Notes under the pieces: generated by a model
What the model was told of the DNA's origin: nothing
Seen by the model: the letters and a program-made list of their open reading frames with translations, nothing else
Database searches by the model: none
In this document: in pieces, positions 7,780 through 19,758 of the stretch
How the letters are laid out: each line of letters opens with the position of its first letter
How positions within the stretch are numbered: position 1 is the first letter of the stretch
Sequence record: MW822008.1
Length of the DNA stretch: 64,000 nucleotides
Reading direction: 5' to 3' (one strand)
DNA from: Escherichia phage BF17
Made by a program: the position numbers and the translations under genes

Positions 7780-7787
7780 AAAAGTAC

Positions 7788-8009: not shown

Positions 8010-8022
8010 AAATATTATCACA

Positions 8023-8057: not shown

Positions 8058-8088
8058 AGATTTTATCAAGACGACTAAGGAAAACAAA

Positions 8089-8301
8089 ATGGCTATCATT
8101 ACAAAAATCAAAGTAAACAAATCACTGGTTAAACTTGAACAAGTGAAAGCAGGTTATAAAGTATCGTGGTGCGGTATGTATCGGATGTTCGCAGATATTG
8201 ATGAAGCGATCAATTATTACAGCGACACGGTTAAAAACTTTGTTCGTGCTGATGTGGTTATGGCAGTGGCAGCACATAAAGCAGCGAAAGAAAGTAAGTA
8301 A
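8089..8301 (+). CDS. hypothetical protein (70 aa); paralog of 11203..11382
   Basis: ORF track; RBS AAGGAA; MAII(T/A)K start shared with 11203 gene. Confidence 0.75.
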   Translation: MAIITKIKVNKSLVKLEQVKAGYKVSWCGMYRMFADIDEAINYYSDTVKNFVRADVVMAVAAHKAAKESK

Positions 8302-8314
8302 AAATATTATCACA

Positions 8315-8349
8315 GTACTATTGACATAGTTTGATAGTACTGGCATAAT
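8315..8349 (+). promoter_or_regulatory. Palindromic promoter cassette (copy 2, exact repeat of copy 1)
   Basis: TTGACA 8321-8326, CATAAT 8344-8349. Confidence 0.7.
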
Positions 8350-8390
8350 AGATTTTATCAAGACAACATATTAATTTAAGGAATACAAAA

Positions 8391-8714
8391 ATGGCTAAAA
8401 CTATCATTAACACCGTTTCCCTGGCTGCAATCCGTGCAATCAATGTTGACGGTAAACGTTGGACTGATTCATATGGCAATACTTATCATTCTTGTCATGT
8501 AAGCGTTGAACTGGATAACGGTTTGAATGATCTGGCGGTTGAATCATTTACTTATGGCTATGAAGATGCATATCAACAAACGGCGTTAGATCTCTTAAAG
8601 GAATCAGTAGACGGGCTTAATACTGATGAAACCTCCCTTACTCGTTTGTGCAATGATCTTAATATCCCGTTGCATTGTACTGTACAGAATGTTAAACGCA
8701 AAAAAGATCTTTAA
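8391..8714 (+). CDS. hypothetical protein (107 aa); paralog of 14809..15132
   Basis: shares RWTDS(Y/H)GNTYHSC(H/Y)VS and C-terminal RKKD(L/M) with 14809 gene. Confidence 0.75.
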   Translation: MAKTIINTVSLAAIRAINVDGKRWTDSYGNTYHSCHVSVELDNGLNDLAVESFTYGYEDAYQQTALDLLKESVDGLNTDETSLTRLCNDLNIPLHCTVQNVKRKKDL

Positions 8715-8794
8715 TTAGCTTTACTTTATGCAGATACTTTGATATAGTGTCTGCATAGGGGAAAGAAATTAAATTAACTTAAGAGGATCGTATA

Positions 8795-9064
8795 ATGAAA
8801 AATATCAGTACTTTAATCGATGCAGGTACACATGTTCGGCGGTCTATGGTTGCAACCAGTACTACAAAACAAGTAGCGAGCGGTTATCTTGTATTTGTGC
8901 ACGATGGTAAACTCCTGGAACGTTCAATCAATTTTGATGTTAAAAACAATTGCCGTTTTATTATCTTTAAGCGTGAACAATATAAAATTGATTTACCAGC
9001 GAAGCCCATAAGCGGGGCGTACAACGTGCAATCATTGTTTGAGCGTCAACCTTACACCTATTAA
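8795..9064 (+). CDS. hypothetical protein (89 aa)
   Basis: ORF track; strong RBS AAGAGGA; upstream inverted repeat ATGCAGATACT...AGTGTCTGCAT. Confidence 0.7.
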   Translation: MKNISTLIDAGTHVRRSMVATSTTKQVASGYLVFVHDGKLLERSINFDVKNNCRFIIFKREQYKIDLPAKPISGAYNVQSLFERQPYTY

Positions 9065-9115
9065 TCAAAACATCGTTAGCGGTCGTTTAAGGCCGCTTAT
9101 ATTGGGGATTATACC

Positions 9116-9388
9116 ATGAACGTTAATCAAGTACTGAATGAGATCGAAAGCATCATTAAACCGATGAAGCGTACTGATGCTATGTTAACACCGGAAGAAA
9201 GCCGCCTATATGAGCGTTACAGCGTCGAACAAGTCCAGGCAATGGCTATGGCTACGCCAGCCGTTAAACCGCCTGAGAATGCGTTACAGGACGTTACAGG
9301 GGATTATATCATTAATCCAGTACTAGGGAAGATGCCGCCAATCACCGAAGAACAAAAAGACTATTTGAGTCAGTACTTAAAAGGTTAA
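9116..9388 (+). CDS. hypothetical protein (90 aa)
   Basis: ORF track; RBS GGGG. Confidence 0.65.
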   Translation: MNVNQVLNEIESIIKPMKRTDAMLTPEESRLYERYSVEQVQAMAMATPAVKPPENALQDVTGDYIINPVLGKMPPITEEQKDYLSQYLKG

Positions 9389-9393
9389 TTAAT

Positions 9394-9603
9394 ATGCTTA
9401 CTGTACAGGATAAGATCGACATCTTAAAGGTTAATATGTATGTGATTGATGCCGTACCTGGTAAAGTATTTGCATACGATGATTCTAATCGCAGTCCTTT
9501 CTATTGTAGTCATGTAGTTGGATACGTGCCGTTGGCGTATGTTATCGAAAGAGTGGTTGATGCAGCATACAATCATTTTTTAGAAAATAATACTTGCAAT
9601 TAG
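9394..9603 (+). CDS. hypothetical protein (69 aa)
   Basis: ORF track; 5 nt after previous stop. Confidence 0.6.
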   Translation: MLTVQDKIDILKVNMYVIDAVPGKVFAYDDSNRSPFYCSHVVGYVPLAYVIERVVDAAYNHFLENNTCN

Positions 9604-9621
9604 TTTTTAAACGCGTATAAT
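9594..9621 (+). promoter_or_regulatory. sigma70 promoter with 5' stem-loop
   Basis: TTGCAA 9594-9599, TATAAT 9616-9621, hairpin GGGGAGAAatgaTTCTCCCC. Confidence 0.7.
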
Positions 9622-9672
9622 GTTTTACATGAAGGGGAGAAATGATTCTCCCCACTAATTAAGGAATATGAA

Positions 9673-9819
9673 ATGAAAGCATCAAAAAAGAGTAATACCA
9701 AGAAAGCATGTTCACCTTTCGCTGGGGTATTCCCTTTACGTTTCGTTGATGAAGTGGTTTCCTACCCGCTGGGCCTTACTCCTGAGATGGTAGAAAGTTT
9801 GCGTAAATCTAAAAAATAA
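9673..9819 (+). CDS. small basic protein (48 aa), below ORF-track cutoff
   Basis: hand-translated MKASKKSNTKKACSPFAGVFPLRFVDEVVSYPLGLTPEMVESLRKSKK; RBS AAGGAA. Confidence 0.55.
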   Translation: MKASKKSNTKKACSPFAGVFPLRFVDEVVSYPLGLTPEMVESLRKSKK

Positions 9820-9823
9820 TACT

Positions 9824-9850
9824 TGCAATTAGTTTTCAGTACTGTATAAT
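9824..9850 (+). promoter_or_regulatory. sigma70 promoter with 5' stem-loop
   Basis: TTGCAA 9824-9829, TATAAT 9845-9850. Confidence 0.7.
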
Positions 9851-9900
9851 AGTTTACATGAAGGGGAGAAATGATTCTCCCCAATAACAGGAGAAACAAA

Positions 9901-10053
9901 ATGAAACAATACAACGCTCGGTTTGATGTTACTATCGGCAACGGCAAAGGTCAATTCTCTTTCAGTACTCGCCGCAGTTATACAGAAAACTTCCTGCGAA
10001 ATTGTGCACTGACCGCCGCACAAATTAAACATTACTTCCAGGCTAAAAAATGA
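9901..10053 (+). CDS. hypothetical protein (50 aa)
   Basis: ATG 9901 with RBS CAGGAG; track start 9871 lies in leader. Confidence 0.6.
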   Translation: MKQYNARFDVTIGNGKGQFSFSTRRSYTENFLRNCALTAAQIKHYFQAKK

Positions 10054-10139
10054 AATCATTAGCTTATTACAGTTCGGCGGTGATCGGTGCATTGATCGCG
10101 GCATTGTTAGTAACCTATCTATTCTTTATGGTGATTTAA
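10050..10139 (+). CDS. tiny hydrophobic single-TM peptide (29 aa)
   Basis: ATGA overlap with upstream stop; MKSLAYYSSAVIGALIAALLVTYLFFMVI. Confidence 0.35.
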   Translation: MKSLAYYSSAVIGALIAALLVTYLFFMVI

Positions 10140-10259
10140 ATGAATCCTAACGGTTTAATTTACAGTACTACTAAAACGAAAGCAGATAAAGCGAAAGTAA
10201 AGGAGTACATTAAGCAAGGCATGACGCGAAAGGCGGCAGTACTGAAAGCTAAAAAATAA
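10140..10259 (+). CDS. small basic protein (39 aa)
   Basis: ATG adjacent to previous TAA; MNPNGLIYSTTKTKADKAKVKEYIKQGMTRKAAVLKAKK. Confidence 0.35.
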   Translation: MNPNGLIYSTTKTKADKAKVKEYIKQGMTRKAAVLKAKK

Positions 10260-10267
10260 ATGAAAAA

Positions 10268-10350
10268 AGTGGTTGACTTCGGTCAGCCATTTTGCTATTA
10301 TATATTCATTGAGAGATAGCTCACTAGCCCACCGGGTGCATAAGTGTATC
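10268..10350 (+). promoter_or_regulatory. Composite module: terminator-like hairpin overlapping promoter (TTGACT-17-TATTAT) plus conserved element GCCCACCGGGTGCATAAGTGTATC
   Basis: hairpin 10271-10288 with T-run; TTGACT 10273-10278; TATTAT 10296-10301; element 10327-10350. Confidence 0.55.
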
Positions 10351-10394
10351 TATTATATAAGTATTGAGTACTGAGAACTATTTTTAAAAAGTAC

Positions 10395-10422
10395 TTGCAA
10401 ACTATCTCAATTGGCGTATAAT
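10395..10422 (+). promoter_or_regulatory. sigma70 promoter with 5' stem-loop
   Basis: TTGCAA 10395-10400, TATAAT 10417-10422. Confidence 0.7.
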
Positions 10423-10473
10423 GTTTTACATCGAGAGGGGGAACGGTTTCCCCTGGTAATAAGGAAACGAATC

Positions 10474-10815
10474 ATGACTATCTCAATTGCTCAATCTAAC
10501 TTTGAAAATGAAATCATCGCCCAGGCACTGCGTTTAAATGATGGTCGGGCCGAAATTAATTACGGTTTCAATTCAGGCGGTTGTGAAAACTATCAGTACT
10601 TTGTAACTGCTGATGGCGGTGTCCTGGGCATCAATACCGTTATTGTAAACATTCAGAAAATTAATTTCAATGATCCAGACGATAGCCAGTTTTACATTGT
10701 AGGCGTAGACGTGAACTATGAGGATGACTCACTAACTGATGATCACACTGGCGAGAAGTTAGAAAGTGCATACGGTGAAGATGATTATCAGTCCGGTCCA
10801 GAAGATTTTGAATAA
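10474..10815 (+). CDS. hypothetical protein (113 aa), acidic C-terminus
   Basis: ATG 10474 with RBS AAGGAA. Confidence 0.75.
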   Translation: MTISIAQSNFENEIIAQALRLNDGRAEINYGFNSGGCENYQYFVTADGGVLGINTVIVNIQKINFNDPDDSQFYIVGVDVNYEDDSLTDDHTGEKLESAYGEDDYQSGPEDFE

Positions 10816-10828
10816 TATTAAAAAATAG

Positions 10829-10857
10829 TTTGACAATAGATTATAGTACTGTATAAT
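10829..10857 (+). promoter_or_regulatory. sigma70 promoter (TTGACA-17-TATAAT) with 5' stem-loop
   Basis: TTGACA 10829-10834, TATAAT 10852-10857. Confidence 0.7.
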
Positions 10858-10906
10858 AAGTTACATCAAGGGGAGAATAGTTCTCCCCACTAACAGAGAA
10901 AACAAA

Positions 10907-11119
10907 ATGGCTAATATCTGCACTGTACTGAAAAATGCAAAACAAGTTTTATTTTCTGACCACGATTATTTTAATAAAGATATTACAGGCGTTCGGAATA
11001 TCAAAGATGTAAAAAGTGTTATGGGTATCTATTGCAATATGAAACGTGTTGGAACGTTCGGCGACAAAGTACTATACCAGGCAGGGGATTACAATTTTAC
11101 ACTGACTATCATTAACTAA
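10907..11119 (+). CDS. hypothetical protein (70 aa)
   Basis: ORF track; RBS GAGAAAA. Confidence 0.7.
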   Translation: MANICTVLKNAKQVLFSDHDYFNKDITGVRNIKDVKSVMGIYCNMKRVGTFGDKVLYQAGDYNFTLTIIN

Positions 11120-11132
11120 AAATATTATCACA

Positions 11133-11167
11133 GTACTATTGACATAGTTTGATAGTACTGACATAAT
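11133..11167 (+). promoter_or_regulatory. Palindromic promoter cassette (copy 3)
   Basis: TTGACA 11139-11144, CATAAT 11162-11167, flanked by AGTACTAT / ATAGTACT. Confidence 0.7.
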
Positions 11168-11202
11168 AACTTTTATCAACTACACTACTAAGGAATTAAA
11201 AA

Positions 11203-11382
11203 ATGGCTATCATCGCAAAAACTGAAATCGTTGGTCTGGATTCTATCATCATGACGTTTGAAGATCAAAAAGGTATGTATGTAGTTTCATATGGTGATTA
11301 TGTTCGGGAGTATGAAACGGTAGACGAAGCCTTTGAAAGTTATATTCGCCAGGTGAATAAAGCATACGACGACTACCGCTAA
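11203..11382 (+). CDS. hypothetical protein (59 aa); paralog of 8089..8301
   Basis: hand-translated; RBS AAGGAA. Confidence 0.6.
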   Translation: MAIIAKTEIVGLDSIIMTFEDQKGMYVVSYGDYVREYETVDEAFESYIRQVNKAYDDYR

Positions 11383-11403
11383 AATATATTACCAGTACTA
11401 TTA

Positions 11404-11437
11404 AAGTTATTGACATAGTTTGATAGTACTGTATAAT
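11404..11437 (+). promoter_or_regulatory. Palindromic promoter cassette (copy 4)
   Basis: TTGACA 11410-11415, TATAAT 11432-11437. Confidence 0.7.
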
Positions 11438-11481
11438 AAGTTTTATAAACAGTAGTTAACTTAACCTAAGAGAGAAATAAA

Positions 11482-11625
11482 ATGATCGCACTGGATTCAT
11501 TCATCGACGCAGTACTGGCAAAAACTGGCGAGGATCTGACCGCAGAACAATACGCGATGATCGAGCAATGTCAGCAAAACGGTAAATCGGTGAAAGATAC
11601 TGTTAAGATTATCCGCAAGATGTAA
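11482..11625 (+). CDS. small protein (47 aa), below ORF-track cutoff
   Basis: hand-translated MIALDSFIDAVLAKTGEDLTAEQYAMIEQCQQNGKSVKDTVKIIRKM; RBS AGAGAAA. Confidence 0.55.
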   Translation: MIALDSFIDAVLAKTGEDLTAEQYAMIEQCQQNGKSVKDTVKIIRKM

Positions 11626-11631
11626 GATTAT

Positions 11632-11665
11632 AGCCCACTGGTTAACGCTGGTGGGCTTTAATCCT
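11632..11665 (+). terminator. Terminator-like hairpin containing a Chi octamer
   Basis: AGCCCAC...GTGGGCT stem; GCTGGTGG 11647-11654; weak T-run. Confidence 0.45.
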
Positions 11666-11730
11666 TTACCCTATACAATGTCAGTACTAAACCGTTTATC
11701 TCATTAGAATGCGTTACAGGACGTTTGACA

Positions 11731-11928
11731 ATGATTAGCATGAAATCAGTACAAAAACAAATAGAAACATTATCAAAAATTAAACGTAAACAGTACTCGT
11801 TAGAATATACAATCAATGGTAACTATCATCTAATGAAAGAGAATAATTTTATCGTCATTGATGAATCATTGCAAGTTATTAGTATAGTACTGAAAGCATT
11901 AATTAATGATAGAAAAAAATTAAAATAA
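11731..11928 (+). CDS. hypothetical protein (65 aa), AT-rich codon usage
   Basis: ATG 11731 (track start is TTG 11725); weak RBS; no promoter seen. Confidence 0.4.
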   Translation: MISMKSVQKQIETLSKIKRKQYSLEYTINGNYHLMKENNFIVIDESLQVISIVLKALINDRKKLK

Positions 11929-11932
11929 TCTA

Positions 11933-12013
11933 TTGACAATATCCTCCAGTACTGGCATAATACTTACATCAAGACGAGAACGTCACTAACCCATAGGGTG
12001 CACAAATGTAACT
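11933..12013 (+). promoter_or_regulatory. Promoter (TTGACA-17-CATAAT) plus conserved element ACCCATAGGGTGCACAAATGTAAC
   Basis: TTGACA 11933-11938, CATAAT 11956-11961, element 11988-12013. Confidence 0.55.
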
Positions 12014-12020
12014 GTATAAT

Positions 12021-12057
12021 ATTGATCAAAAAATGATCTGATCAATACTTGATCAAT
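12021..12057. promoter_or_regulatory. GATC cluster: 4 GATC sites in 31 bp, three as TGATCAA
   Basis: GATC at 12024, 12035, 12040, 12051 within the leader upstream of the TraR-like gene. Confidence 0.6.
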
Positions 12058-12259
12058 TTGCGTAAAGTAGTATAATTCTATGCAGTTGGTTAGACGAAAG
12101 GTTATGATTAGTAGTGCAAGTGTATAAAAATTTTCATGGTGTATCGTTCCGCACATATGGCAATGAATATGTGGTATCATGTGGATTGGAAAAAGTAAGA
12201 ACAAGTAATATTATTGTCGCATTACAGTACTATAGTATTTTTATAATGAGGTTAAAATA

Positions 12260-12517
12260 ATGGCTGTAGGATTCGCGAAAGATGGGGCCGAACAAGACGA
12301 GATTAACGCAGTGATTCAGGCCGCCGTTAACCACGCTAGAAAGCAAATTAACGCACAAATAGAATCACTGATACATTGCCTCGACTGCGGCGATATAATC
12401 CCTGAGAAACGACGCCAGGCCGTTAAGGGATGTAAGTACTGCATAACTTGCCAGGAGGATCATGATAGTACTTTTAAACGTCCCCCGCGTAATTGTTGGC
12501 ATAGATCTATGAGATAA
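12260..12517 (+). CDS. TraR/DksA-family C4 zinc-finger protein (85 aa)
   Basis: CLDCGDIIPEKRRQAVKGCKYCITCQ = C-x2-C-x13-C-x2-C-x2-C arrangement with IPE..RR typical of TraR; RBS GAGG. Confidence 0.75.
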   Translation: MAVGFAKDGAEQDEINAVIQAAVNHARKQINAQIESLIHCLDCGDIIPEKRRQAVKGCKYCITCQEDHDSTFKRPPRNCWHRSMR

Positions 12518-12523
12518 AAAGTA

Positions 12524-12552
12524 TTGACAGTACTATCCAGTAGTGTTATAGT
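12524..12552 (+). promoter_or_regulatory. sigma70 promoter (TTGACA-17-TATAGT) with 5' stem-loop
   Basis: TTGACA 12524-12529, TATAGT 12547-12552, hairpin AGGGGAAacatcTTCCCCT. Confidence 0.65.
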
Positions 12553-12598
12553 ACTTACATCAAGGGGAAACATCTTCCCCTACTAAGAGGAAATGAAA

Positions 12599-12787
12599 AT
12601 GGAAAACTTATCAAGTATTTTAGTACAAGATGATTTCGGTAATCCTGGAAGTGCTATCATTGTTCGGGGTAATAAAGCAACATTTGTTATTGCTGGTGGA
12701 CCTGTACAGCGTAGCATTAAAAACAATGCCGTTACTATTAATAATGTACGCTATCGCTTAGATAAAGAATTGATTCATAAACTGTAA
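12599..12787 (+). CDS. hypothetical protein (62 aa)
   Basis: ATG 12599 with RBS AGAGG (track start 12593 too close to RBS). Confidence 0.65.
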   Translation: MENLSSILVQDDFGNPGSAIIVRGNKATFVIAGGPVQRSIKNNAVTINNVRYRLDKELIHKL

Positions 12788-12814
12788 TATTAATTTAATA
12801 GAGGATAACAATAA

Positions 12815-13138
12815 ATGTACATTCATACTACTATCACAAAGGAAGTCCGTTGCCAGTTCGAAAGTATTCCGGGCGTATGTTTCATCACTGGTACGTTTTC
12901 CCCTGGTGATCGTGATAATCCAGTACTGTTACAATTACGCCATCCATCATGGGATAAAGCATTTGATCTACCGTTGAATGAATTCGCAACTACTGCTGAA
13001 AAGTACATTAAAAATATTCGCGAGAATGATCGACTATTCATTAATGCTTTCAGTGATTCCGCGTTAAGCGAGATCCACAGCGTATTGGTTGCAATCATGG
13101 AATCAATGGAGAAAACTAAATTCAAACAAGGTGAATAA
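12815..13138 (+). CDS. hypothetical protein (107 aa)
   Basis: ORF track; RBS AGAGGA. Confidence 0.7.
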   Translation: MYIHTTITKEVRCQFESIPGVCFITGTFSPGDRDNPVLLQLRHPSWDKAFDLPLNEFATTAEKYIKNIRENDRLFINAFSDSALSEIHSVLVAIMESMEKTKFKQGE

Positions 13139-13144
13139 AAACTA

Positions 13145-13172
13145 TTGACAAGATAATCTAGTACTGTATAAT
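13145..13172 (+). promoter_or_regulatory. sigma70 promoter (TTGACA-16-TATAAT) with 5' stem-loop
   Basis: TTGACA 13145-13150, TATAAT 13167-13172. Confidence 0.7.
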
Positions 13173-13221
13173 AAGTTACATGAAGGGGAGAAATGATTCT
13201 CCCCACTGAGAGGAAAGAAAA

Positions 13222-13434
13222 ATGCAAGGTCAACTAATCGTTCGTAAATGGTCTGATACTAACGCTAAACCGTGGGATGTACAATACATCGGACCGGATG
13301 GGGTATCACGTTATCAGCCTGGCGTAACGCATAGTACTGAGCAATATGCCGCCGCTCACCGCGAACGCCTGTTAGAATCCATGAAACAGGGATACGGTGA
13401 AAAATTCATTCAAGATCATTGGCTGAAAGATTAA
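13222..13434 (+). CDS. hypothetical protein (70 aa)
   Basis: ORF track; RBS GAGAGGAAA. Confidence 0.75.
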   Translation: MQGQLIVRKWSDTNAKPWDVQYIGPDGVSRYQPGVTHSTEQYAAAHRERLLESMKQGYGEKFIQDHWLKD

Positions 13435-13451
13435 TATAAGGAGTACAGCTT

Positions 13452-13544
13452 ATGCAAATGAATCCGATGATTATTGTGTTAGCTGTACTTATGATCATTC
13501 ATGCAATAGTAAAAGTATTAACGCAATCAGGAGTAATAAAATGA
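13452..13544 (+). CDS. tiny hydrophobic single-TM peptide (30 aa)
   Basis: RBS AAGGAG 13436-13441; MQMNPMIIVLAVLMIIHAIVKVLTQSGVIK. Confidence 0.4.
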   Translation: MQMNPMIIVLAVLMIIHAIVKVLTQSGVIK

Positions 13545-13714
13545 TTCAAGTAGAATTATCAGTACTGAAAGATCTGTTTTATCGGTTAGGTACTACTGGC
13601 GAGTATCCTAAAAGTGATACCGCAAAACTTTTTGTATCACTCGACTTATGGCAACGCGAACAATTAGTAATGTCCTGGCGTAAAGGTAAAGCAGATAGCG
13701 AGGTGAAAGCATGA
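13541..13714 (+). CDS. small protein (57 aa)
   Basis: ATGA overlap with upstream stop; RBS CAGGAG. Confidence 0.45.
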   Translation: MIQVELSVLKDLFYRLGTTGEYPKSDTAKLFVSLDLWQREQLVMSWRKGKADSEVKA

Positions 13715-13860
13715 AAGAATTCTTATTCGAAGTAGTGTTTCAAGGTGTCGGTAGTAACCAACTGATTCGCTCAAGTGGTTATAATGTTAACCAGGCATGG
13801 AATAACATTAAACAAATGTACCCGAACGCTATCACCTATCGCAACCCGAAAGAAGTTTAA
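13711..13860 (+). CDS. small protein (49 aa)
   Basis: ATGA overlap with upstream stop; RBS GAGG. Confidence 0.45.
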   Translation: MKEFLFEVVFQGVGSNQLIRSSGYNVNQAWNNIKQMYPNAITYRNPKEV

Positions 13861-13873
13861 AAATATTTGAAAA

Positions 13874-13952
13874 AGGGATTGACTCCGGTCAGTCCCTTTG
13901 CTATTATATACGCATAGAAACAAATCAGCCCACAGGGTGCATAAATGTATCT
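13874..13952 (+). promoter_or_regulatory. Composite module: bidirectional terminator-like hairpin overlapping promoter plus conserved element AGCCCACAGGGTGCATAAATGTATC
   Basis: hairpin GGGATTGACtccgGTCAGTCCC 13875-13896, TTGACT 13878-13883, element 13927-13952; Chi GCTGGTGG 13960-13967 just downstream. Confidence 0.55.
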
Positions 13953-13998
13953 ATTGTTTGCTGGTGGCTAGTACTGAAAACTATTTTTAAAAAAGTAC

Positions 13999-14026
13999 TT
14001 GCATTGTACTTAGAATCAAGTATAAT
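13999..14026 (+). promoter_or_regulatory. sigma70 promoter P1 (TTGCAT-16-TATAAT)
   Basis: TTGCAT 13999-14004, TATAAT 14021-14026. Confidence 0.65.
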
Positions 14027-14030
14027 GTTT

Positions 14031-14114
14031 TACATCAGGACGGGGAACGAAACAAGTAACCCCGTTAAGTAGTCCAGGAGTAAGACATAAGAAAACCTCC
14101 CCTGATAAAATAGT
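14031..14114 (+). ncRNA. Conserved structured leader / candidate small RNA (copy 2)
   Basis: about 85% identical to 3722-3806; stem CGGGG...CCCCG one base pair shorter on both arms. Confidence 0.4.
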
Positions 14115-14142
14115 TTGACAATAGAAAGTAAACGAGTATAAT
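14115..14142 (+). promoter_or_regulatory. sigma70 promoter P2 (TTGACA-16-TATAAT)
   Basis: TTGACA 14115-14120, TATAAT 14137-14142. Confidence 0.65.
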
Positions 14143-14175
14143 ACTTACATCAACCACTGATAAGGAAACATTAAA

Positions 14176-14451
14176 ATGCGGATTCTACTGACAGCTAACG
14201 AAATCGAACAAGTACTGACTACTAACCTGGAAGACTGGAAACGTGAAGCAGATATCCAGGCGGTTCAACTGCTTAACGATAAGTTAACGCCGGATGACTT
14301 AAGCAAGATTGTAGATCCTCAATTCTACGAAGATATCCACGACACCGCGTTAAGCGTCGAGGATGTACTAGATAAGCACTACATTGATATTGATTTGCAG
14401 GTTTACGGTCGTAAAAACTTTATCACTATTCACGACATTTATAATAATTAA
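14176..14451 (+). CDS. hypothetical acidic protein (91 aa)
   Basis: ORF track; RBS AAGGAAA. Confidence 0.75.
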   Translation: MRILLTANEIEQVLTTNLEDWKREADIQAVQLLNDKLTPDDLSKIVDPQFYEDIHDTALSVEDVLDKHYIDIDLQVYGRKNFITIHDIYNN

Positions 14452-14454
14452 GTA

Positions 14455-14482
14455 TTGACAAAGTATCTTAGTACTGTATAAT
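14455..14482 (+). promoter_or_regulatory. sigma70 promoter with 5' stem-loop
   Basis: TTGACA 14455-14460, TATAAT 14477-14482, hairpin GGGGGAAtggTTCCCCTCC. Confidence 0.7.
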
Positions 14483-14537
14483 AGTTTACATCGAGAGGGG
14501 GAATGGTTCCCCTCCTAACAAAGAGAGAGAAATAAAA

Positions 14538-14720
14538 ATGGCTAAATGCACTATCTGCAAGAAAGAAATAGTATTAGTTCCAAGTGCCCGTGAACGTGCC
14601 GCTCGGTTCGGTGGCAAAGCGTCAGACTATACAAAAATGTTTACTACCCATGCAGCTTGCCAGGTAGCAAAACGTTCACAAGAAAGCGTAGAATTAATGC
14701 GTAAACTTTCCAAAAAATAA
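14538..14720 (+). CDS. small Cys-containing basic protein (60 aa; CTIC...ACQ)
   Basis: ORF track; RBS AGAGAGAGAAA. Confidence 0.7.
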   Translation: MAKCTICKKEIVLVPSARERAARFGGKASDYTKMFTTHAACQVAKRSQESVELMRKLSKK

Positions 14721-14723
14721 GTA

Positions 14724-14751
14724 TTGACAAAGTATCTTAGTACTGTATAAT
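14724..14751 (+). promoter_or_regulatory. sigma70 promoter with 5' stem-loop
   Basis: TTGACA 14724-14729, TATAAT 14746-14751. Confidence 0.7.
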
Positions 14752-14808
14752 AGTTTACATCAAGTGAGGGGAAACGGTTCCCCTCCTAACAAAGAGAGAG
14801 AAATAAAA

Positions 14809-15132
14809 ATGGCTATGATCCTTGCCCAGAAAGTAGAACTGAAAATTGTAACCTCCTTTGACATTAAAGTTAATCGGTGGACTGATTCACACGGCAATAC
14901 TTACCACTCTTGCTACGTGTCCGCGTTAATTGGCGACCGCTGGGAAGACTTGGGACATGAAACCTTTACTTACGGTTACGGTACACAAGGAGAATACACG
15001 GGCTTGGAGATCATTAAAGAAACCGTTATAGGTTTCAACCCGAAAGAAAAAGTTATTCACCGCATCGAAAAAGAGATTAACAAAGAAATAACAGTTCGCT
15101 ACTACGATGTAAAACGTAAGAAAGACATGTAA
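14809..15132 (+). CDS. hypothetical protein (107 aa); paralog of 8391..8714
   Basis: ATG 14809; track start 14764 lies in leader. Confidence 0.75.
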   Translation: MAMILAQKVELKIVTSFDIKVNRWTDSHGNTYHSCYVSALIGDRWEDLGHETFTYGYGTQGEYTGLEIIKETVIGFNPKEKVIHRIEKEINKEITVRYYDVKRKKDM

Positions 15133-15146
15133 TAGAATCCATTTAA

Positions 15147-15183
15147 AGTACTATTTGACATTGCCCAGATAGTACTTTATAAT
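15147..15183 (+). promoter_or_regulatory. Promoter TTGACA-17-TATAAT enclosed by palindrome AAGTACTAT...ATAGTACTT
   Basis: TTGACA 15155-15160, TATAAT 15178-15183; same architecture as 2783-2819. Confidence 0.65.
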
Positions 15184-15227
15184 AGACTCTAACTTGTAGT
15201 ACTAACTCAACTAATAGGATGTATACC

Positions 15228-15623
15228 ATGATTACTAAATTCTACGCTACCCGTGAAGCTGCCCGTATTGTTGCACGCGAGGAAGGAGCAGCATTTAAAG
15301 ACATGGGCAAAGATGCACCGAAAGGTCAACGCTGGGCCGTACAGTTCAAAGAAATCTCTGATATTGTGAATTCACCTGAGCCAGTACTAACAGCAGCAGA
15401 ACTAAAACGAGCGGATTTACTGGCGGCAGTACTTAACGCACAAGATGAATTTATCGCTGATTCTGATATCAAAGTACAGACAAACCATACCGCTTGGACT
15501 CACGCGGATCACCTGGCAAACCTTAAGCGTCCAAGTGAACTGGTTCGCAACCAGAAAGAGATCCGACACGACCGTAAGGGTAATCGTGTAACAGTATACA
15601 GTAAACGCCGCCAGGTTATCTAA
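15228..15623 (+). CDS. hypothetical protein (131 aa); paralog of 2856..3122
   Basis: ATG 15228 with RBS AGGA 15215-15218. Confidence 0.75.
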   Translation: MITKFYATREAARIVAREEGAAFKDMGKDAPKGQRWAVQFKEISDIVNSPEPVLTAAELKRADLLAAVLNAQDEFIADSDIKVQTNHTAWTHADHLANLKRPSELVRNQKEIRHDRKGNRVTVYSKRRQVI

Positions 15624-15643
15624 TAACTTGCAGTACTAACAAC

Positions 15644-15671
15644 ACGGCGGGATCAGTTCCCGCCTTTTTTA
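15644..15671 (+). terminator. Rho-independent terminator
   Basis: hairpin GGCGGGatcagttCCCGCC then TTTTTT. Confidence 0.75.
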
Positions 15672-15685
15672 TAGGATAAACTAAA

Positions 15686-15940
15686 ATGATTAAGGTACAA
15701 CTATCTAAAGATAATATCTTGCGGGTACACTATAAAGCACCACAGAGAATCATCACAAAGGCCGTACAGCTTGCTAATGAGTTTATTAATGGTAACCTAT
15801 TACCAAGGAAGTTAAGCAACGGAAAACTGCGTGTAATCGATGTAGACACTAACAACAGAATAGTAATTGAGAACACAGGAAAGATAAACCTATATGAACA
15901 CCAACAATATAATAAGAAAATAAAACTAATATCACGTTGA
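15686..15940 (+). CDS. hypothetical basic protein (84 aa)
   Basis: ORF track; RBS AGGA. Confidence 0.65.
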   Translation: MIKVQLSKDNILRVHYKAPQRIITKAVQLANEFINGNLLPRKLSNGKLRVIDVDTNNRIVIENTGKINLYEHQQYNKKIKLISR

Positions 15941-15965
15941 CAGTACTCAATTGTTTTAGTATTAT
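15937..15965 (+). promoter_or_regulatory. sigma70 promoter (TTGACA-17-TATTAT); duplicated cassette with 16213-16241
   Basis: TTGACA 15937-15942, TATTAT 15960-15965; leader TACACATACCAACACGGG shared. Confidence 0.6.
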
Positions 15966-15993
15966 GTACACATACCAACACGGGAGAAACAAA

Positions 15994-16212
15994 ATGAAAT
16001 TATCTAAAATCGAAAAGAAAACTATTGATGAAGCAGTTAAGCACGGTTATACCTTTCGTAATGATTCACATTTTACCAATTTTCAACAAGGCCAAAGGAC
16101 TATTAAAAAACTAATTGACAAAGGTTTATTAGTTAAAGTAGATAACGGTAACGGCATTGAGTATCAGCCAACCCAAGACGCATTATCTTTAAAGAAATAT
16201 GCAATTATCTAA
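15994..16212 (+). CDS. hypothetical protein (72 aa)
   Basis: ATG 15994; track start 15937 is the TTG of the -35. Confidence 0.7.
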   Translation: MKLSKIEKKTIDEAVKHGYTFRNDSHFTNFQQGQRTIKKLIDKGLLVKVDNGNGIEYQPTQDALSLKKYAII

Positions 16213-16241
16213 TTGACAGTACTCAAATGTTTTAGTACTAT
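16213..16241 (+). promoter_or_regulatory. sigma70 promoter (TTGACA-17-TACTAT)
   Basis: TTGACA 16213-16218, TACTAT 16236-16241. Confidence 0.6.
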
Positions 16242-16269
16242 ATGTACATACCAACACGGGGAAAACAAA

Positions 16270-16512
16270 ATGATTACTTTAGAAAAACGTATCAAAGAAA
16301 CTACATCGCTGGTGGAACTGTTAACAGTACTGAAATGCCGTACTACTCGGTTTAGTACACCGGACTTTATTAATATGGTTGATGTTAACGGTCGTTATCG
16401 CATTGCAGTAGAACATGGAACAGCGAAAGTATTCAGTACTAAAAACACTAAGGAAGTGATTCACGCGGTTAGTGTGAAAAAAGTGGTTGCCATTGATAGT
16501 AAAGTACTGTAA
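16270..16512 (+). CDS. hypothetical protein (80 aa)
   Basis: ATG 16270, RBS GGGGAAAA. Confidence 0.7.
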   Translation: MITLEKRIKETTSLVELLTVLKCRTTRFSTPDFINMVDVNGRYRIAVEHGTAKVFSTKNTKEVIHAVSVKKVVAIDSKVL

Positions 16513-16543
16513 GATAGTTTCATTAACTCAAGGAGAACATGCA

Positions 16544-17128
16544 ATGCGTAATTATACTAAATTCATCCGTACCCTGTCAGAAATGGAAACCAACAAAGAG
16601 ATCCTTTCAGCTTGTCGGTTAGCTGGTCTGGAGATCATCGGTGCGGGTTCTTCCCGTATTGTATTCGCTTTAAATGATCGGTTAGTGATTAAGGTCGCCA
16701 ATTGTGATGCGGGTGTAGAACAAAATGAAACTGAATGTAAGGTATGGAATTTTTTAGACTATGACCGCCCTCAATTGAAACAGTACTTTGCAAAGGTGCA
16801 TATGCATTTATGCGATCCTGATAATATGTTTATCGTTATGGATCGGTTGAGTACTGCAAGCAAAGGCAGTGTAAAGCACGTTAACGCGTGCAACGAATTA
16901 AAGTACAATATTAAACGTAATGCCATTGAACGCCAGCACCGCTTTGCTGATGCACTACAACACGTCGATGATACATTATCAACACTAACGATAAGAGATA
17001 TCAGAAAACAGAATATCGGCCAGGATCGTAATGGACTTATTAAAGTACTTGATTACGGTTTAACCCGCAATATCTGGAATCAGTACTATAAAAAGCGTGA
17101 TGTGGCAGCAAGTAAAGTAACACGATAA
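16544..17128 (+). CDS. putative small atypical protein kinase (194 aa) with Hanks-like catalytic motifs
   Basis: IIGAGSSRIVF (Gly-rich loop), VIKV (Lys), IRDIRKQNIG (cf. HRDxKxxN), VLDYGL (cf. DFG); ATG 16544 with RBS AAGGAG. Confidence 0.55.
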   Translation: MRNYTKFIRTLSEMETNKEILSACRLAGLEIIGAGSSRIVFALNDRLVIKVANCDAGVEQNETECKVWNFLDYDRPQLKQYFAKVHMHLCDPDNMFIVMDRLSTASKGSVKHVNACNELKYNIKRNAIERQHRFADALQHVDDTLSTLTIRDIRKQNIGQDRNGLIKVLDYGLTRNIWNQYYKKRDVAASKVTR

Positions 17129-17141
17129 AAAAGATTAAAAA

Positions 17142-17225
17142 AGGGATTGATTTCGGTCAGTCCCTTTGCTATTATATATTCATTGAGAGATAGCTCACTG
17201 ACCCACAGGGTGCATAAATGTATCT
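17142..17225 (+). promoter_or_regulatory. Composite module: terminator-like hairpin overlapping promoter plus conserved element ACCCACAGGGTGCATAAATGTATC
   Basis: hairpin GGGATTGAtttcgGTCAGTCCC 17143-17165; element 17201-17225. Confidence 0.55.
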
Positions 17226-17268
17226 ATTATATAAGTATTCAGTACTGAAAACTATTTTTAAAAAGTAC

Positions 17269-17296
17269 TTGCATTGTACTTAGAATCAAGTATAAT
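17269..17296 (+). promoter_or_regulatory. sigma70 promoter with 5' stem-loop
   Basis: TTGCAT 17269-17274, TATAAT 17291-17296. Confidence 0.7.
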
Positions 17297-17351
17297 GTTT
17301 TATATCGAGAGGGGGGGAACGGTTCTCCCTCAAAGAATAAGGAATAAAATC

Positions 17352-17573
17352 ATGACTACAATGACTTGCATTTACGCTTCCAATCTTCTGAATGATGCGG
17401 CCTTTAATGTTGATTCAGAATATCAATGTTATCGGGATGAAAATAAAAAAGTTTTTGTAGTTGATAATAATGGTTTCCATATTGAAATACAATCCGGCTT
17501 CACTGGTGTTGATGGTAAATCAGTATGGGGCGTACAGGATGATAACGGTACATATCATTTTAAACGTAATTAA
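17352..17573 (+). CDS. hypothetical protein (73 aa)
   Basis: ATG 17352, RBS AAGGAA. Confidence 0.75.
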   Translation: MTTMTCIYASNLLNDAAFNVDSEYQCYRDENKKVFVVDNNGFHIEIQSGFTGVDGKSVWGVQDDNGTYHFKRN

Positions 17574-17576
17574 GTA

Positions 17577-17604
17577 TTGACAAAGTATCTTAGTACTGTA
17601 TAAT
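17577..17604 (+). promoter_or_regulatory. sigma70 promoter with 5' stem-loop
   Basis: TTGACA 17577-17582, TATAAT 17599-17604. Confidence 0.7.
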
Positions 17605-17657
17605 AGTTTACATCAAGGGGAGAATAGTTCTCCCCGATACTAAAAGGAAACAAAATT

Positions 17658-17930
17658 ATGTCCAGCTACTCCGCTACTATGATCATTAAAGATATGAACG
17701 GTAATCCTACTTCCGCTGGTGGATCATTTGGAAACATTAATTTAGATGGTCGGTTATCCATGCAATCAGCCATCGATGCAGCGAAAGAAGTTTTTAAGAA
17801 TGAATGCACTGTAAGCAAGCTGGATTATATGGGATTCGCTATCGAGAAAACTAATCGTTTTGTGAACTACAAAAATCCACTGATGATTGATACTAACCTG
17901 AAAGCTAACGAAGTGGAATACTTATTATGA
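17658..17930 (+). CDS. hypothetical protein (90 aa)
   Basis: ORF track; RBS AAGGAAA. Confidence 0.75.
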   Translation: MSSYSATMIIKDMNGNPTSAGGSFGNINLDGRLSMQSAIDAAKEVFKNECTVSKLDYMGFAIEKTNRFVNYKNPLMIDTNLKANEVEYLL

Positions 17931-18118
17931 CAGTTGAAGAAGTTAAAAAAGTACTGGCAGTACTACGCTATCATAATCATTGCAAGGTGAAGAATGATCC
18001 TGATTATGTTGATTCATCCCTGGAGGAAGACACATTAAACGCAATAAGCCATATGCAAACATTAGCAAAGCGTATGACCGAAAAGAATAGACCGGACTAT
18101 ATCGGAAATAAAATTTAA
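17927..18118 (+). CDS. hypothetical protein (63 aa)
   Basis: ATGA start/stop overlap with 17658 gene. Confidence 0.6.
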   Translation: MTVEEVKKVLAVLRYHNHCKVKNDPDYVDSSLEEDTLNAISHMQTLAKRMTEKNRPDYIGNKI

Positions 18119-18125
18119 AAAGTAC

Positions 18126-18153
18126 TTGCATTGTAGTTAGATTAACGTATAAT
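18126..18153 (+). promoter_or_regulatory. sigma70 promoter with 5' stem-loop
   Basis: TTGCAT 18126-18131, TATAAT 18148-18153, hairpin GCGGGGGAAtagtTCTCCCGCC. Confidence 0.7.
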
Positions 18154-18204
18154 GTTTTACATAGAGCGGGGGAATAGTTCTCCCGCCAGTCCAGGAGATA
18201 CACC

Positions 18205-18468
18205 ATGAACACTATCGAAATCACTATCAATGCACACGTATACGACAACGTAGTACTGCAAACTACTATGACCGCTAACGATACCAGTACTTTGCGGAAT
18301 ACTGTTATTAGTGCCGTATGTGCCGCTATCGGTGATGTCGCCCTGGAAAATGCAAAACACGTAAACGATGGTTTCACTATGTGCAAACGTGATAACGCAA
18401 AACATATCATCGTGGAAGGTTACGGCGGTGTAGAATTTAATGTTTATATGAAAAAAGTACTTGCATAA
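18205..18468 (+). CDS. hypothetical protein (87 aa)
   Basis: ORF track; RBS CAGGAG; 3' end overlaps next promoter -35. Confidence 0.7.
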   Translation: MNTIEITINAHVYDNVVLQTTMTANDTSTLRNTVISAVCAAIGDVALENAKHVNDGFTMCKRDNAKHIIVEGYGGVEFNVYMKKVLA

Positions 18469-18488
18469 TAACTAAAACAAAGTATAAT
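18461..18488 (+). promoter_or_regulatory. sigma70 promoter with 5' stem-loop
   Basis: TTGCAT 18461-18466, TATAAT 18483-18488. Confidence 0.7.
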
Positions 18489-18535
18489 GTTTTGCATAGG
18501 GGGAGATGTCCTCCCCCACTAAAAGGAGTAATAAA

Positions 18536-18760
18536 ATGGCTAACTTTGATGAACTGATGCGGGAAGTAGCTAACCTGGCAGAAGAGAAAAAATCATTCGA
18601 TTCTATCTATAACACCTCTTACCGTGATTCAGTACTGGCATGTAACCAGGATCAAAAAGATGAACTAATCGCCACCTATCATGAAGCATGGAAGTACTAC
18701 CGACAATGGGAGAAAGAAGAAAGAGAGTCTACCATTGACGGCCTCAATAATCTAATCTAA
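18536..18760 (+). CDS. hypothetical protein (75 aa)
   Basis: ATG 18536, RBS AAAGGAG. Confidence 0.75.
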   Translation: MANFDELMREVANLAEEKKSFDSIYNTSYRDSVLACNQDQKDELIATYHEAWKYYRQWEKEERESTIDGLNNLI

Positions 18761-18773
18761 AAGTTTTATTTCA

Positions 18774-18808
18774 GTACTATTGACATAGCTTGATAGTACT
18801 GATGTAAT
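18774..18808 (+). promoter_or_regulatory. Palindromic promoter cassette (copy 5, diverged -10)
   Basis: AGTACTAT-TGACATAGCTTG-ATAGTACT; TTGACA 18780-18785. Confidence 0.6.
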
Positions 18809-18836
18809 AACTTTACTAACTACAAGGGGAAACATC

Positions 18837-19094
18837 ATGGAACAATTCACACAATATCGGGTAAATCCTCAAGCTATGGCCTACGTAGAAGACCATAAAA
18901 CGTTACCAGTACTGCAACCAGTTAAAGGCCATATCTATCGTGCAATGTCGTGGAGTACGGCCCAGGATGGCTATAAAACCGTAGCCGTTGGTATGTACTG
19001 CGGTAATGGTGAATGGTTTGATCCAAATAATCCGGTAGCCATTGACAGTACTGAAAAAATGAAATGGGCCGACTACATCGAAGATATTTCATAA
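18837..19094 (+). CDS. hypothetical protein (85 aa)
   Basis: ORF track; RBS AAGGGGAAA. Confidence 0.7.
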   Translation: MEQFTQYRVNPQAMAYVEDHKTLPVLQPVKGHIYRAMSWSTAQDGYKTVAVGMYCGNGEWFDPNNPVAIDSTEKMKWADYIEDIS

Positions 19095-19107
19095 AAAGAA
19101 TAAAAAA

Positions 19108-19187
19108 AAGGAGTTGACTTCGGTCCGCTCCTTTAGTACTATATACGCATAGAAACAAATCAGCCCACAGGGTGCATAAGTGTATCC
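19108..19187 (+). promoter_or_regulatory. Composite module: terminator-like hairpin overlapping promoter plus conserved element AGCCCACAGGGTGCATAAGTGTATC
   Basis: hairpin about 19109-19133; element 19162-19187; Chi GCTGGTGG 19222-19229 downstream. Confidence 0.55.
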
Positions 19188-19254
19188 AAAATATATAGTT
19201 AATAACGGTGAGTAACTATCTGCTGGTGGAACTAAAACTATTAATAAAAAAGTA

Positions 19255-19283
19255 TTGACAAAGTATATCAGTACTGCAATAAT
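19255..19283 (+). promoter_or_regulatory. sigma70-like promoter (TTGACA-17-AATAAT)
   Basis: TTGACA 19255-19260; GC-rich leader hairpin. Confidence 0.55.
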
Positions 19284-19336
19284 GTATCTCGTAGGGCGGC
19301 AATGGTGCGACGGCCCACAAAGTTAGGAGATTCAAA

Positions 19337-19669
19337 ATGAGTACTTCAATCGCTATCGTTAAAGCTTTCATCCGTACCAATGTTTCATCTGTATTCATCG
19401 ACGGTCTGGATCGGGAAGTAGAATACTCAATCATTATCGCACAGACTGCAAACGGTGCTCGGTATATCCTTAATGATAGTGAAGCAAATCACTACTACTT
19501 CACTAAAGCTACTGGCTTTAAACGCATCGATGCTGATGTAGTATACGCTAAGATGAATAAGCTGGTAGACAAGATTAACGCTAAAGGTACTATAGATTTA
19601 CAGTACTGGACCGAAACCGATCCAGAATATGGATCTCACCGCTACCTGAATCCAGGTATTAAAATGTAA
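19337..19669 (+). CDS. hypothetical protein (110 aa)
   Basis: ORF track; RBS AGGAG. Confidence 0.75.
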   Translation: MSTSIAIVKAFIRTNVSSVFIDGLDREVEYSIIIAQTANGARYILNDSEANHYYFTKATGFKRIDADVVYAKMNKLVDKINAKGTIDLQYWTETDPEYGSHRYLNPGIKM

Positions 19670-19676
19670 AAAGTAC

Positions 19677-19704
19677 TTGCATAGTACTTAGAATCAAGTA
19701 TAAT
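19677..19704 (+). promoter_or_regulatory. sigma70 promoter with 5' stem-loop
   Basis: TTGCAT 19677-19682, TATAAT 19699-19704, hairpin GGGGGAAatggTTCTCCCTCC. Confidence 0.7.
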
Positions 19705-19758
19705 GTTTTACATAGAGAGGGGGAAATGGTTCTCCCTCCTAAATTAAGGAGTTTTATC

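Follow-up and report, generated by a model that had tools for sequence, protein, structure and literature searches.

What is a promoter doing inside a transcription terminator, and why is the pair followed, several times in one genome, by the same short sequence? The question is raised by Escherichia phage BF17 (sequence record MW822008.1), of which we analyzed a stretch of 64,000 nucleotides (nt), referred to below as the window. The locus at 13874–13975 combines a terminator hairpin, an overlapping promoter, a conserved 25-nt element and a Chi site, and the original prediction recognized four copies of this composite, which it took to be a functional unit. We find that the 25-nt element belongs, as its core, to a ~51-nt motif of which the window has not four but 11 copies (seven on the plus and four on the minus strand). 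The element is kept across phage genera, lies just 3′ of its own promoter and shows RNA-type covariation, which bears out the idea of a functional unit. Our leading reading, which is tentative and falls a little short of an even chance, is that the four modules may be cassettes of the promoter-early stem-loop (PeSL) type that launch a short structured RNA, the many copies of which would act in trans through a protein-binding hairpin.

The four modules, all on the plus strand, occur where they were predicted and in the order A-run, hairpin with the -35 element, T-run, -10 element and conserved element. In the focal module, the hairpin at 13872–13899 (AAAGGGATTGAC-TCCG-GTCAGTCCCTTT; 12 pairs, 5 of them GC, in the terminator scan) is flanked by an A-run on its 5′ side and by TTT on its 3′ side, and closes the upstream operon (gene 13711–13860). 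Its 5′ arm holds the -35 (TTGACT, 13879–13884) of a promoter, P1 (13879–13907), which has a 17-nt spacer and an extended -10, TGcTATTAT (13899–13907), agrees with the consensus at 10 of 12 positions and is predicted to start transcription near 13914. The RNA motif follows at 13909–13959 (covariance model R1, 53.6 bits, E 6e-13), with the 25-nt element as its invariant core (13927–13951). The Chi site GCTGGTGG (13960–13967) adjoins the motif and is not part of it. Beyond it lie an A/T-rich, UP-like tract, a second promoter, P2 (13999–14026; TTGCAT, 16 nt, TATAAT), a non-coding leader of ~80 nt, a third promoter (14115–14142) and a gene (14176–14451).

The other modules repeat this design. At 10266–10358, the hairpin (10266–10293), P1 (10273–10301) and motif (10308–10358, 54.5 bits) are followed by P2 (10395–10422) and a gene (10474–10815); at 17140–17232, the corresponding features are the hairpin at 17140–17167, P1 at 17147–17175, the motif at 17182–17232 (52.1 bits), P2 at 17269–17296 and a gene at 17352–17573. 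The module at 19110–19194 has its hairpin at 19110–19131, P1 at 19114–19142 (TTGACT, 17 nt, TACTAT) and motif at 19144–19194 (54.4 bits), with a Chi site (19222–19229), P2 (19255–19283) and a gene (19337–19669) downstream. Across the four, P1 matches the consensus at 9–10 of 12 positions behind an upstream A-run, and its -10 is, as predicted, TATTAT or TACTAT, lying 17 nt after the -35 and extended by TGn in three of four. The -35 does lie in the 5′ arm of the hairpin and reads TTGACT in some copies and TTGATT in others. The conserved element, AGCCCACAGGGTGCATAARTGTATC, begins 19–24 nt after the -10 (27–32 nt separate the end of the -10 from the GGG of the element) and has four matches at ≤3 mismatches, compared with none in each of 100 shuffles. 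The similarity of the aligned modules goes beyond generic promoter and terminator consensus, since the extra element is kept across phage genera.

The modules are longer than the ~90 nt first assigned to them, as the four copies align across ~200 nt that include P2 with its UP-like A/T tract and a hairpin in the 5′ untranslated region. From 5′ to 3′, they run from the A-run through the hairpin (TTGACT in the 5′ arm), 3–4 T, the extended -10, a leader of two subtypes, the core and a variable spacer to the A/T-rich tract with P2 (TTGCAT or TTGACA, a 16–17-nt spacer, TATAAT or AATAAT, starting 29–61 nt past the motif), and then usually to a GC hairpin, a ribosome-binding site and the gene. Copies are 84–86% identical over 93–189 nt; the module at 17140, for instance, is 86% identical to the copy at 10253–10441 over 189 nt. 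The proteins encoded downstream are mutually unrelated, which rules out a leader belonging to one gene family. As to termination in both directions, the plus-strand T-run is only TTT or TTTT; the A-run is longer than the T-run, and the hairpin therefore looks at least as good a terminator for the minus strand. The orthologous hairpins in the related phage G17 are annotated as ARNold terminators (-13 kcal/mol).

Anchoring the search on GGGTGC revealed seven further copies of the motif, here named, as are all copies, by the position of their GGG: three on the plus strand (1262, 3531, 11996) and four on the minus strand (1102, 1318, 3587, 5507). These have the promoter and lack the terminator hairpin and a Chi site beside the motif. 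A covariance model built on the 51-nt segment recovers exactly the 11 copies at 38–54.5 bits, with the next match at 13 bits. The 11 are confined to the first 20 kb of the window, the other 44 kb having none. Each window copy has a private promoter with 8–11 of 12 consensus positions, extended by TGn in 8 of 11, whose -10 ends 27–34 nt before the GGG. A degenerate additional copy was also noticed on the minus strand near 725–760.

The region that holds the copies is distinctive. Window bases 9000–21000 share 95–97% identity with jumbo phages infecting E. coli and Salmonella (genome size ~350 kb), namely SD-2_S15, slurp01, G17 and relatives of 121Q/PBECO4 in the genus Asteriusvirus. Base 1 of the window matches the final base of the G17 record in reverse complement, position x in the window maps to coordinate 21378-x in G17, the focal module maps to both G17 ends, and it lies within annotated direct terminal repeats in other phage records. 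These mappings indicate that bases 1 to ~21,400 are a direct terminal repeat and that the window begins at the physical end of the genome of this Asteriusvirus-like jumbo phage. The repeat is dense in small plus-strand open reading frames (ORFs), 49 of which we scanned, most being without a Pfam match. It contains 109 near-consensus sigma-70 promoters (67 expected) and 23 terminators (12 expected), or one terminator per 1–6 genes. Promoter enrichment ends past ~21 kb, where long, tightly packed operons with sparse promoters follow.

To what extent does the motif behave as RNA? It opens with a 5′-terminal hairpin, usually of 3–5 base pairs (bp) with a purine-rich loop (most commonly GCGAAA, GAGAAA, AGAUAA or AGAACAA), as in UGAG-AGAUAG-CUCA in the motif at 10308–10358. 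All four modeled pairs of this hairpin show double-sided changes, in 30–40 of 85 sequences, through GC, CG, AU and UA, and an alignment-free test (mean z -2.25) detected a hairpin in 60 of 81 copies. One conserved subtype, to which copies 13935 and 19170 belong, is without it. The core, UAR-CCC-AYA-GGG-UGC, is nearly invariant. Within it, RNAalifold independently predicts a mini-hairpin, R-CCC/GGG-U, of 4 bp with an AYA triloop, paired in 98.6%; R, opposite an invariant U, is A or G equally often, and the double change CCU/AGG is seen in two sequences. A second stem pairs GGGUGCR with a downstream YGYRYCY, with 89% of alignment cells paired compared with 31–51% when the pairing is slid; its 5′ strand is invariant and its 3′ strand varies almost only between U and C or A and G, keeping G-U/G-C and U-A/U-G pairs. 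In the focal copy, these alternatives are G-CCC-ACA-GGG-U at 13928–13938 and GGGUGCA/UGUAUCU at 13935–13952. Pairing of AGAUA/AUAGA with UAUCU/UCUAU occurs in some subtypes only, and mutual information on an ungapped alignment gave no pairing signal besides that of the 5′ hairpin.

Because G-U pairing fits the transcribed strand only, the substitutions of the second stem favor RNA over duplex DNA. They bear directly on the possibility that the motif acts as DNA, either bound by a phage regulator as an operator or roadblock, or used as a recombination site that shuffles PeSL cassettes, with its RNA structure incidental. Such a site would fit a core conserved as sequence more than as structure, as well as the convergent pairs described below, which form a large inverted repeat with a fixed gap (~8, or 26 in other phages). 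The identity among module copies is as expected after gene conversion, and recombination of PeSLs has been reported (PMC2839356). Yet the 5′ hairpin covaries through all four Watson–Crick pair types, the second-stem changes that keep pairing on the transcribed strand would leave A-C mismatches on the other, and a DNA site would not need a private promoter at fixed distance. A purely DNA-level role thus appears quite unlikely to us.

The mini-hairpin and the second stem share GGGU and are therefore mutually exclusive, an architecture that recalls attenuation: a factor stabilizing the mini-hairpin would block the second stem, acting as a weak terminator, and so tune read-through from P1. The alignment supports both exclusive helices, and in copy 1262 the second stem followed by T7 scores as an intrinsic terminator. 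It is the only copy to qualify, however. In the family, the stem includes three G-U pairs and the consensus 3′ of it is AUA(A/G)UAU, with no U-tract; the G-U-rich stem reaches -7.8 kcal/mol in the sole copy that folds alone, and most copies have nothing downstream to regulate. We regard an attenuator as improbable.

The motif is not peculiar to BF17. The orthologous repeat of G17 has 10 copies and its adjacent 30 kb none. A pattern scan of IMG/VR gave 40 loci, and covariance searches of jumbo-phage loci gave 82 matches with model R1 and 94 with model R2, nearly all in 345–380-kb contigs of RaK2-, GAP32-, CBB- and 121Q-like phages and metagenomic relatives. Short unrelated contigs that matched the pattern had no model match except L027, an apparent fragment of such a phage. 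By BLAST, the module is present in 63 phage records, with hosts in Escherichia, Salmonella, Klebsiella, Erwinia, Pectobacterium, Cronobacter and Serratia. The promoter is conserved with the motif: 71 of 74 distinct copies have one with ≥9 of 12 consensus positions and a -10 ending 1–8 nt before the model start. The hairpin with its embedded -35 is likewise kept in RaK2-, GAP32- and CBB-like phages (for example, AAAAAGGGGTTGACTTCGGTCAGCCCCTTTTGCTATTAT).

This distribution also speaks to the simplest explanation, that the motif is a passenger, a fragment of leader that is carried along with mobile promoter cassettes, is homogenized by recombination between copies and has no function of its own. 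The high identity of copies within the genome and the differing copy number in close relatives (11 in the window, 10 in G17) are in keeping with this. A passenger would hardly have retained a near-invariant core across seven enterobacterial host genera while flanks, loops and the sequence of the 5′ hairpin diverged with compensatory changes, and of all the explanations considered we find this one the least credible.

Could the motif be something already known, or a copy of something in the host? Rfam 15 gave no relevant match at E ≤1 over bases 1–22000, nor at E ≤10 on short stretches, and a search for transfer RNA and transfer-messenger RNA (tmRNA) found none. Mimicry of a host sequence was rejected, as blastn of the motif against 5,426 E. 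coli genomes and a strict motif pattern run against 185,579 bacterial and archaeal species genomes returned no match. A resemblance to tmRNA pseudoknot 1 was unsupported by the same E. coli blastn search, no direct tmRNA alignment having been made. A leader peptide was suggested by AGGGUG followed by AUG or GUG, which resembles a ribosome-binding site and start in the window copies; it was rejected because the start position is often AUC, GCA or UUG across the family. A late or middle promoter, or a sigma-dependent pause, was set aside as well, CATAAAT not being conserved and half of the family having GGAG-type loops. The element is not mentioned in the literature on CBB, RaK2 or PA5oct, or in a jumbo-phage review and comparative overview, and this short structured RNA appears to be undescribed so far.

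The fate of the transcripts depends on how the copies are placed, and three arrangements recur. In the first, terminator and P1, motif, P2 and gene succeed one another, as in the four modules; copy 11996 (unit 11933–12020) has the same order minus the hairpin, with a promoter reading TTGACA, 17 nt, TGgCATAAT, a motif at 11970–12020 (54.1 bits) whose 5′ hairpin is GACG-AGAA-CGUC, and the next promoter at 12049. In the second, the motif is antisense to genes, an arrangement frequent in other phages. The stand-alone unit 5441–5570 on the minus strand is of this kind (promoter 5570–5542, motif 5533–5483, 51.8 bits), with 21 bases separating its motif, copy 5507, from the bidirectional terminator (5461–5441) of an upstream plus-strand gene, which predicts an RNA of ~100 nt. 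In the third, two copies converge. At 3471–3643, the plus-strand unit of copy 3531 (promoter 3471–3499, motif 3505–3555, 43.8 bits) faces the minus-strand unit of copy 3587 (promoter 3643–3615, motif 3613–3563, 46.1 bits). Within ~1.1–1.4 kb of the terminus, the unit of copy 1262 (plus; promoter 1199–1228, motif 1236–1286, 38.0 bits) similarly faces that of copy 1318 (minus; promoter 1380–1353, motif 1344–1294, 43.5 bits). The gap within the pairs is fixed, at 7 bases between model ends (a start-to-end difference of 8), and is ~8 in most other phages and ~26 in some. Nearby, copy 1102 (minus; promoter 1164–1137, motif 1128–1078, 50.7 bits) has another minus-strand promoter downstream. Altogether, 4 of the 11 copies are antisense to all genes. 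In every arrangement an obstacle, be it a strong, occupied promoter, a terminator or a converging twin, stands 7–60 nt past the motif, and the RNAs would therefore be short.

These placements bear on the possibility of a cis-acting leader that modifies polymerase, in which processive antitermination of the put or nut type, by the motif alone or with a phage protein, would let P1 read through terminators into delayed-early transcripts. No copy of the motif starts farther from its promoter than the first ~55 nt can accommodate, four of the sense copies coincide exactly with a terminator, terminators recur every 1–6 genes in this region, and beyond the repeat come long, promoter-poor operons; in one related contig (L039:12597) the motif is a true 5′ untranslated region, followed directly by a ribosome-binding site and ATG. 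Some of the loops, GAGAAA and GCGAAA, resemble the purine-rich loops of boxB. Against this, 4 of the 11 window copies and ~30% of all copies aim away from genes or into a twin, and one stops at a strong terminator with solely antisense DNA beyond. The unit of P1 plus motif also recurs after successive terminators, which would be needless if the motif conferred resistance to them. No boxA-like sequence is conserved, the window encodes no small arginine-rich N-like protein, and the 5′ hairpin is missing from one conserved subtype. We judge a cis-acting leader unlikely, though less so than any of the other alternatives to a trans-acting RNA.

Several phage systems invite comparison. Small hairpin RNA elements just 3′ of early promoters, transcribed by host polymerase, are also a feature of the put sites of HK022 and the nut sites of lambda, which the motif resembles in position and loop composition only. 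The promoter-proximal position is shared, but the gene context downstream is absent for 4 of the 11 copies, about a third of motif copies lack genes or useful terminators downstream, and the motif is much smaller than HK022 put RNA. A second parallel is offered by decoy RNAs, such as pseudo-ToxI repeats and solitary repeats of clustered regularly interspaced short palindromic repeats (CRISPR), the ‘RNA anti-CRISPRs’, which are likewise short, structured, multi-copy phage RNAs. Phage decoys present a constant protein-binding module, presumably titrating a protein; they copy a host RNA sequence and are arranged as a tandem array. In contrast, our motif has no bacterial counterpart, and its copies are dispersed, each with a private promoter. 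Finally, the long terminal repeat of the distantly related Pseudomonas jumbo phage PA5oct also specifies non-coding RNAs, ncRNA001 and ncRNA002, which are highly transcribed and 236 and 451 nt in length (PMC7318152); neither locus contains the motif, and we rejected them as the same element.

The closest precedent for the modules is the PeSL cassette of T4-type phages (Arbiol et al. 2010, PMC2839356; Comeau et al. 2014, PMC4122927). PeSLs end upstream transcription, restart it and recombine with each other, and their stem-loop may overlap the -35 (PMC2839356, PMC4122927). Like them, the modules fuse a G/C stem-loop terminator to a strong early promoter of the sigma-70 type that has an A/T-rich tract upstream of it. 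The stem-loop overlaps the -35 and the spacer, and termination is predicted by ARNold on the G17 orthologs. Many copies, moreover, stand among the small orphan genes of a plastic region, where we count the four cassettes and dozens of promoter-plus-hairpin units among the 49 small ORFs, and the copies may be similar enough to recombine; G17 has one motif copy fewer than the window. The differences are equally clear. A published PeSL ends in a Shine–Dalgarno sequence and the start codon of the next gene, whereas here P1 leads to the ~50-nt motif and then to P2; the motif also accompanies stem-loop-free promoters, on either strand; and the cassettes are found in the direct terminal repeat of ~350-kb RaK2/121Q-like phages. 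The suggestion of a recombination module finds a precedent in PeSL cassettes (PMC2839356, PMC4122927). That of a terminator coupled to a small-RNA gene comes closest to our own, except that the terminator is not obligatory, being absent from 7 of the 11 motif copies. Nothing in the analysis, which included no test aimed at it, points to an insulator. Beyond the modules, almost every early gene of the repeat (1649–19750; families D1–D5 and D16) has a private near-consensus promoter with a GC hairpin, GGGGRA-N-GGTTCCCC, at ~+8, followed by a ribosome-binding site. We regard these promoter–hairpin units as PeSL-like, and the hairpin may stabilize the 5′ end of the messenger RNA.

How might a PeSL-type cassette that launches an RNA work? 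In the mechanism we favor, the terminator would close the upstream early operon while its stem carries the -35 of P1, a strong promoter for host sigma-70 polymerase. P1 would not drive the next gene, a task left to P2, and would instead launch the ~50-nt structured RNA. The products, most likely ~60–110 nt long, would be transcribed by the polymerase of the host during the opening minutes of infection, off the first DNA to enter. The invariant hairpin would serve as the recognition site for a conserved host or phage protein, and the many strongly expressed copies would act in trans as decoy or scaffold. A bolder version, which we hold with appreciably less confidence, is that the motif represents a new class of immediate-early phage RNA that binds a factor conserved across Enterobacterales, for put-like reprogramming of polymerase or for titration of an RNA-binding defense or housekeeping protein, the head-to-head pairs being a device for making short RNAs without a terminator.

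Several observations weigh against a short trans-acting RNA. Single-sequence folding energies are unremarkable (z -0.3 to -1.9), and the two core helices exclude each other. All copies have their private promoter, but only 5507 and 1262 have a terminator for their own transcript. The five sense, non-convergent copies have none before the next promoter, so their transcripts could run on as long leaders, and the contig L039:12597 has the layout of a cis-acting leader. The window holds no complement of the core besides the copies themselves, and an antisense seed was rejected on that ground. The Pfam scan of the 49 terminal-repeat ORFs revealed no RNA-binding domain, and no binding partner was found. 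No transcriptome for this phage group was found in the literature, and the RNA ends given here are therefore predictions. The analysis establishes the copies, their promoters, their conservation, the RNA-type covariation and the arrangements; short length, action in trans and protein binding to the core are inferred. With these points included, we rank a trans-acting, protein-binding small RNA first in likelihood, followed by a cis antitermination leader, a DNA-level site, an attenuator and a passenger. The early genes with recognizable domains lie at 12260–12517, 15686–15940, 2530–2769, 4570–4809, 12815–13138 and 16544–17128, and the Pfam matches in the repeat are to a zinc finger of the DksA/TraR type, a ParE-like toxin domain, DUF7249 (in two paralogs), DUF7247 and, weakly, a protein-kinase-like domain; the DksA/TraR-type protein likely binds the secondary channel of polymerase.

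What, then, is the place of Chi, which had been described, for two copies, as a component of the module ~10 nt past the element? The actual distances are 8 nt (13960) and 35 nt (19222), and Chi accompanies two of the four modules and none of the other seven copies. The window has 11 Chi sites where 0.42 would be expected, and 10 of these fall in the first 20 kb, within the terminal repeat. Because they are spread repeat-wide, some inside genes and one forming the 3′ arm of another terminator, we assign Chi to the terminal repeat as a whole rather than to the module; in related phages, it often lies in the spacer of the motif promoter. The sites (585–604, 7334–7403, 11647, 12692, 13960, 16308, 17715 and 19222) amount to a ~25-fold enrichment, with eight on the plus and two on the minus strand and opposite-strand pairs at 585/597 and 7334/7396. 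By our reading of Chi polarity, and with the repeat at both ends, plus-strand sites would face RecBCD arriving from the far end and minus-strand sites RecBCD entering at position 1, a layout that fits end protection of the linear genome. A terminator family built on AGCCCAC...GTGGGCT occurs at 6558–6574, 7289–7309 and 11632–11658. Its AGCCCAC also begins the RNA core, and the 3′ arm of the third member holds a Chi site.

Other features of the region were noted in passing. The first ~1.4 kb from the terminus (1–1400) appears non-coding and includes, especially at 754–913, 8-bp periodic repeats (GGCTAGAT, GGCTAAAC and TGGACG units), which might serve as signals for terminase, replication or injection. 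Another non-coding unit is repeated, at 3684–3870 and 13994–14180 (89% identity over 189 nt); it consists of a strong promoter, a transcript of ~80 nt that carries hairpins (GGACGGGGAACGAAAYAAGTAAC..CCCCGTTAAGTAG..CAGGAGTAAG..CTCCCCTGATAAAATAG) and lacks a start codon, a consensus promoter and a gene, and is a candidate for an additional small RNA or leader. A palindrome, AGTACT (for example at 531–564, 3486, 5472, 13970 and 17241), is found 135 times in the terminal repeat, where 6.9 are expected, and 117 times in the other 42.6 kb, where 14 are expected; CAGTACTG is found 36 and 27 times, respectively, compared with ~0.3–0.4 expected. Palindromes of this type occupy fixed places at promoters (CCAGTACTGGCATAAT, AAAAAGTACTTGCA) and lie within ~35 nt 3′ of the RNA motif in 55 of 102 copies; they may be the binding site of a global regulator or a modification motif. 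Just past the terminal repeat are tandem arrays of small paralogous genes (21067–26458, 27345–52446 and 38445–40501), with repeat spacings of ~215 bp for families D7/D10 and ~450 bp for D6/D9, D11 being a dispersed EEYFQ-like motif over 27–52 kb.

For these jumbo phages, whose early regions are almost wholly unannotated, the best-conserved item of the 21-kb terminal repeat is an RNA and not a protein. With 10–11 copies per repeat, there are about twice that number per genome, and the motif explains many of the strong promoters without genes in these genomes. PeSL-type cassettes, known from T4-type phages, would here launch non-coding RNAs as well as genes. If a host or phage factor does bind it, the RNA would represent a novel agent of host take-over or anti-defense.

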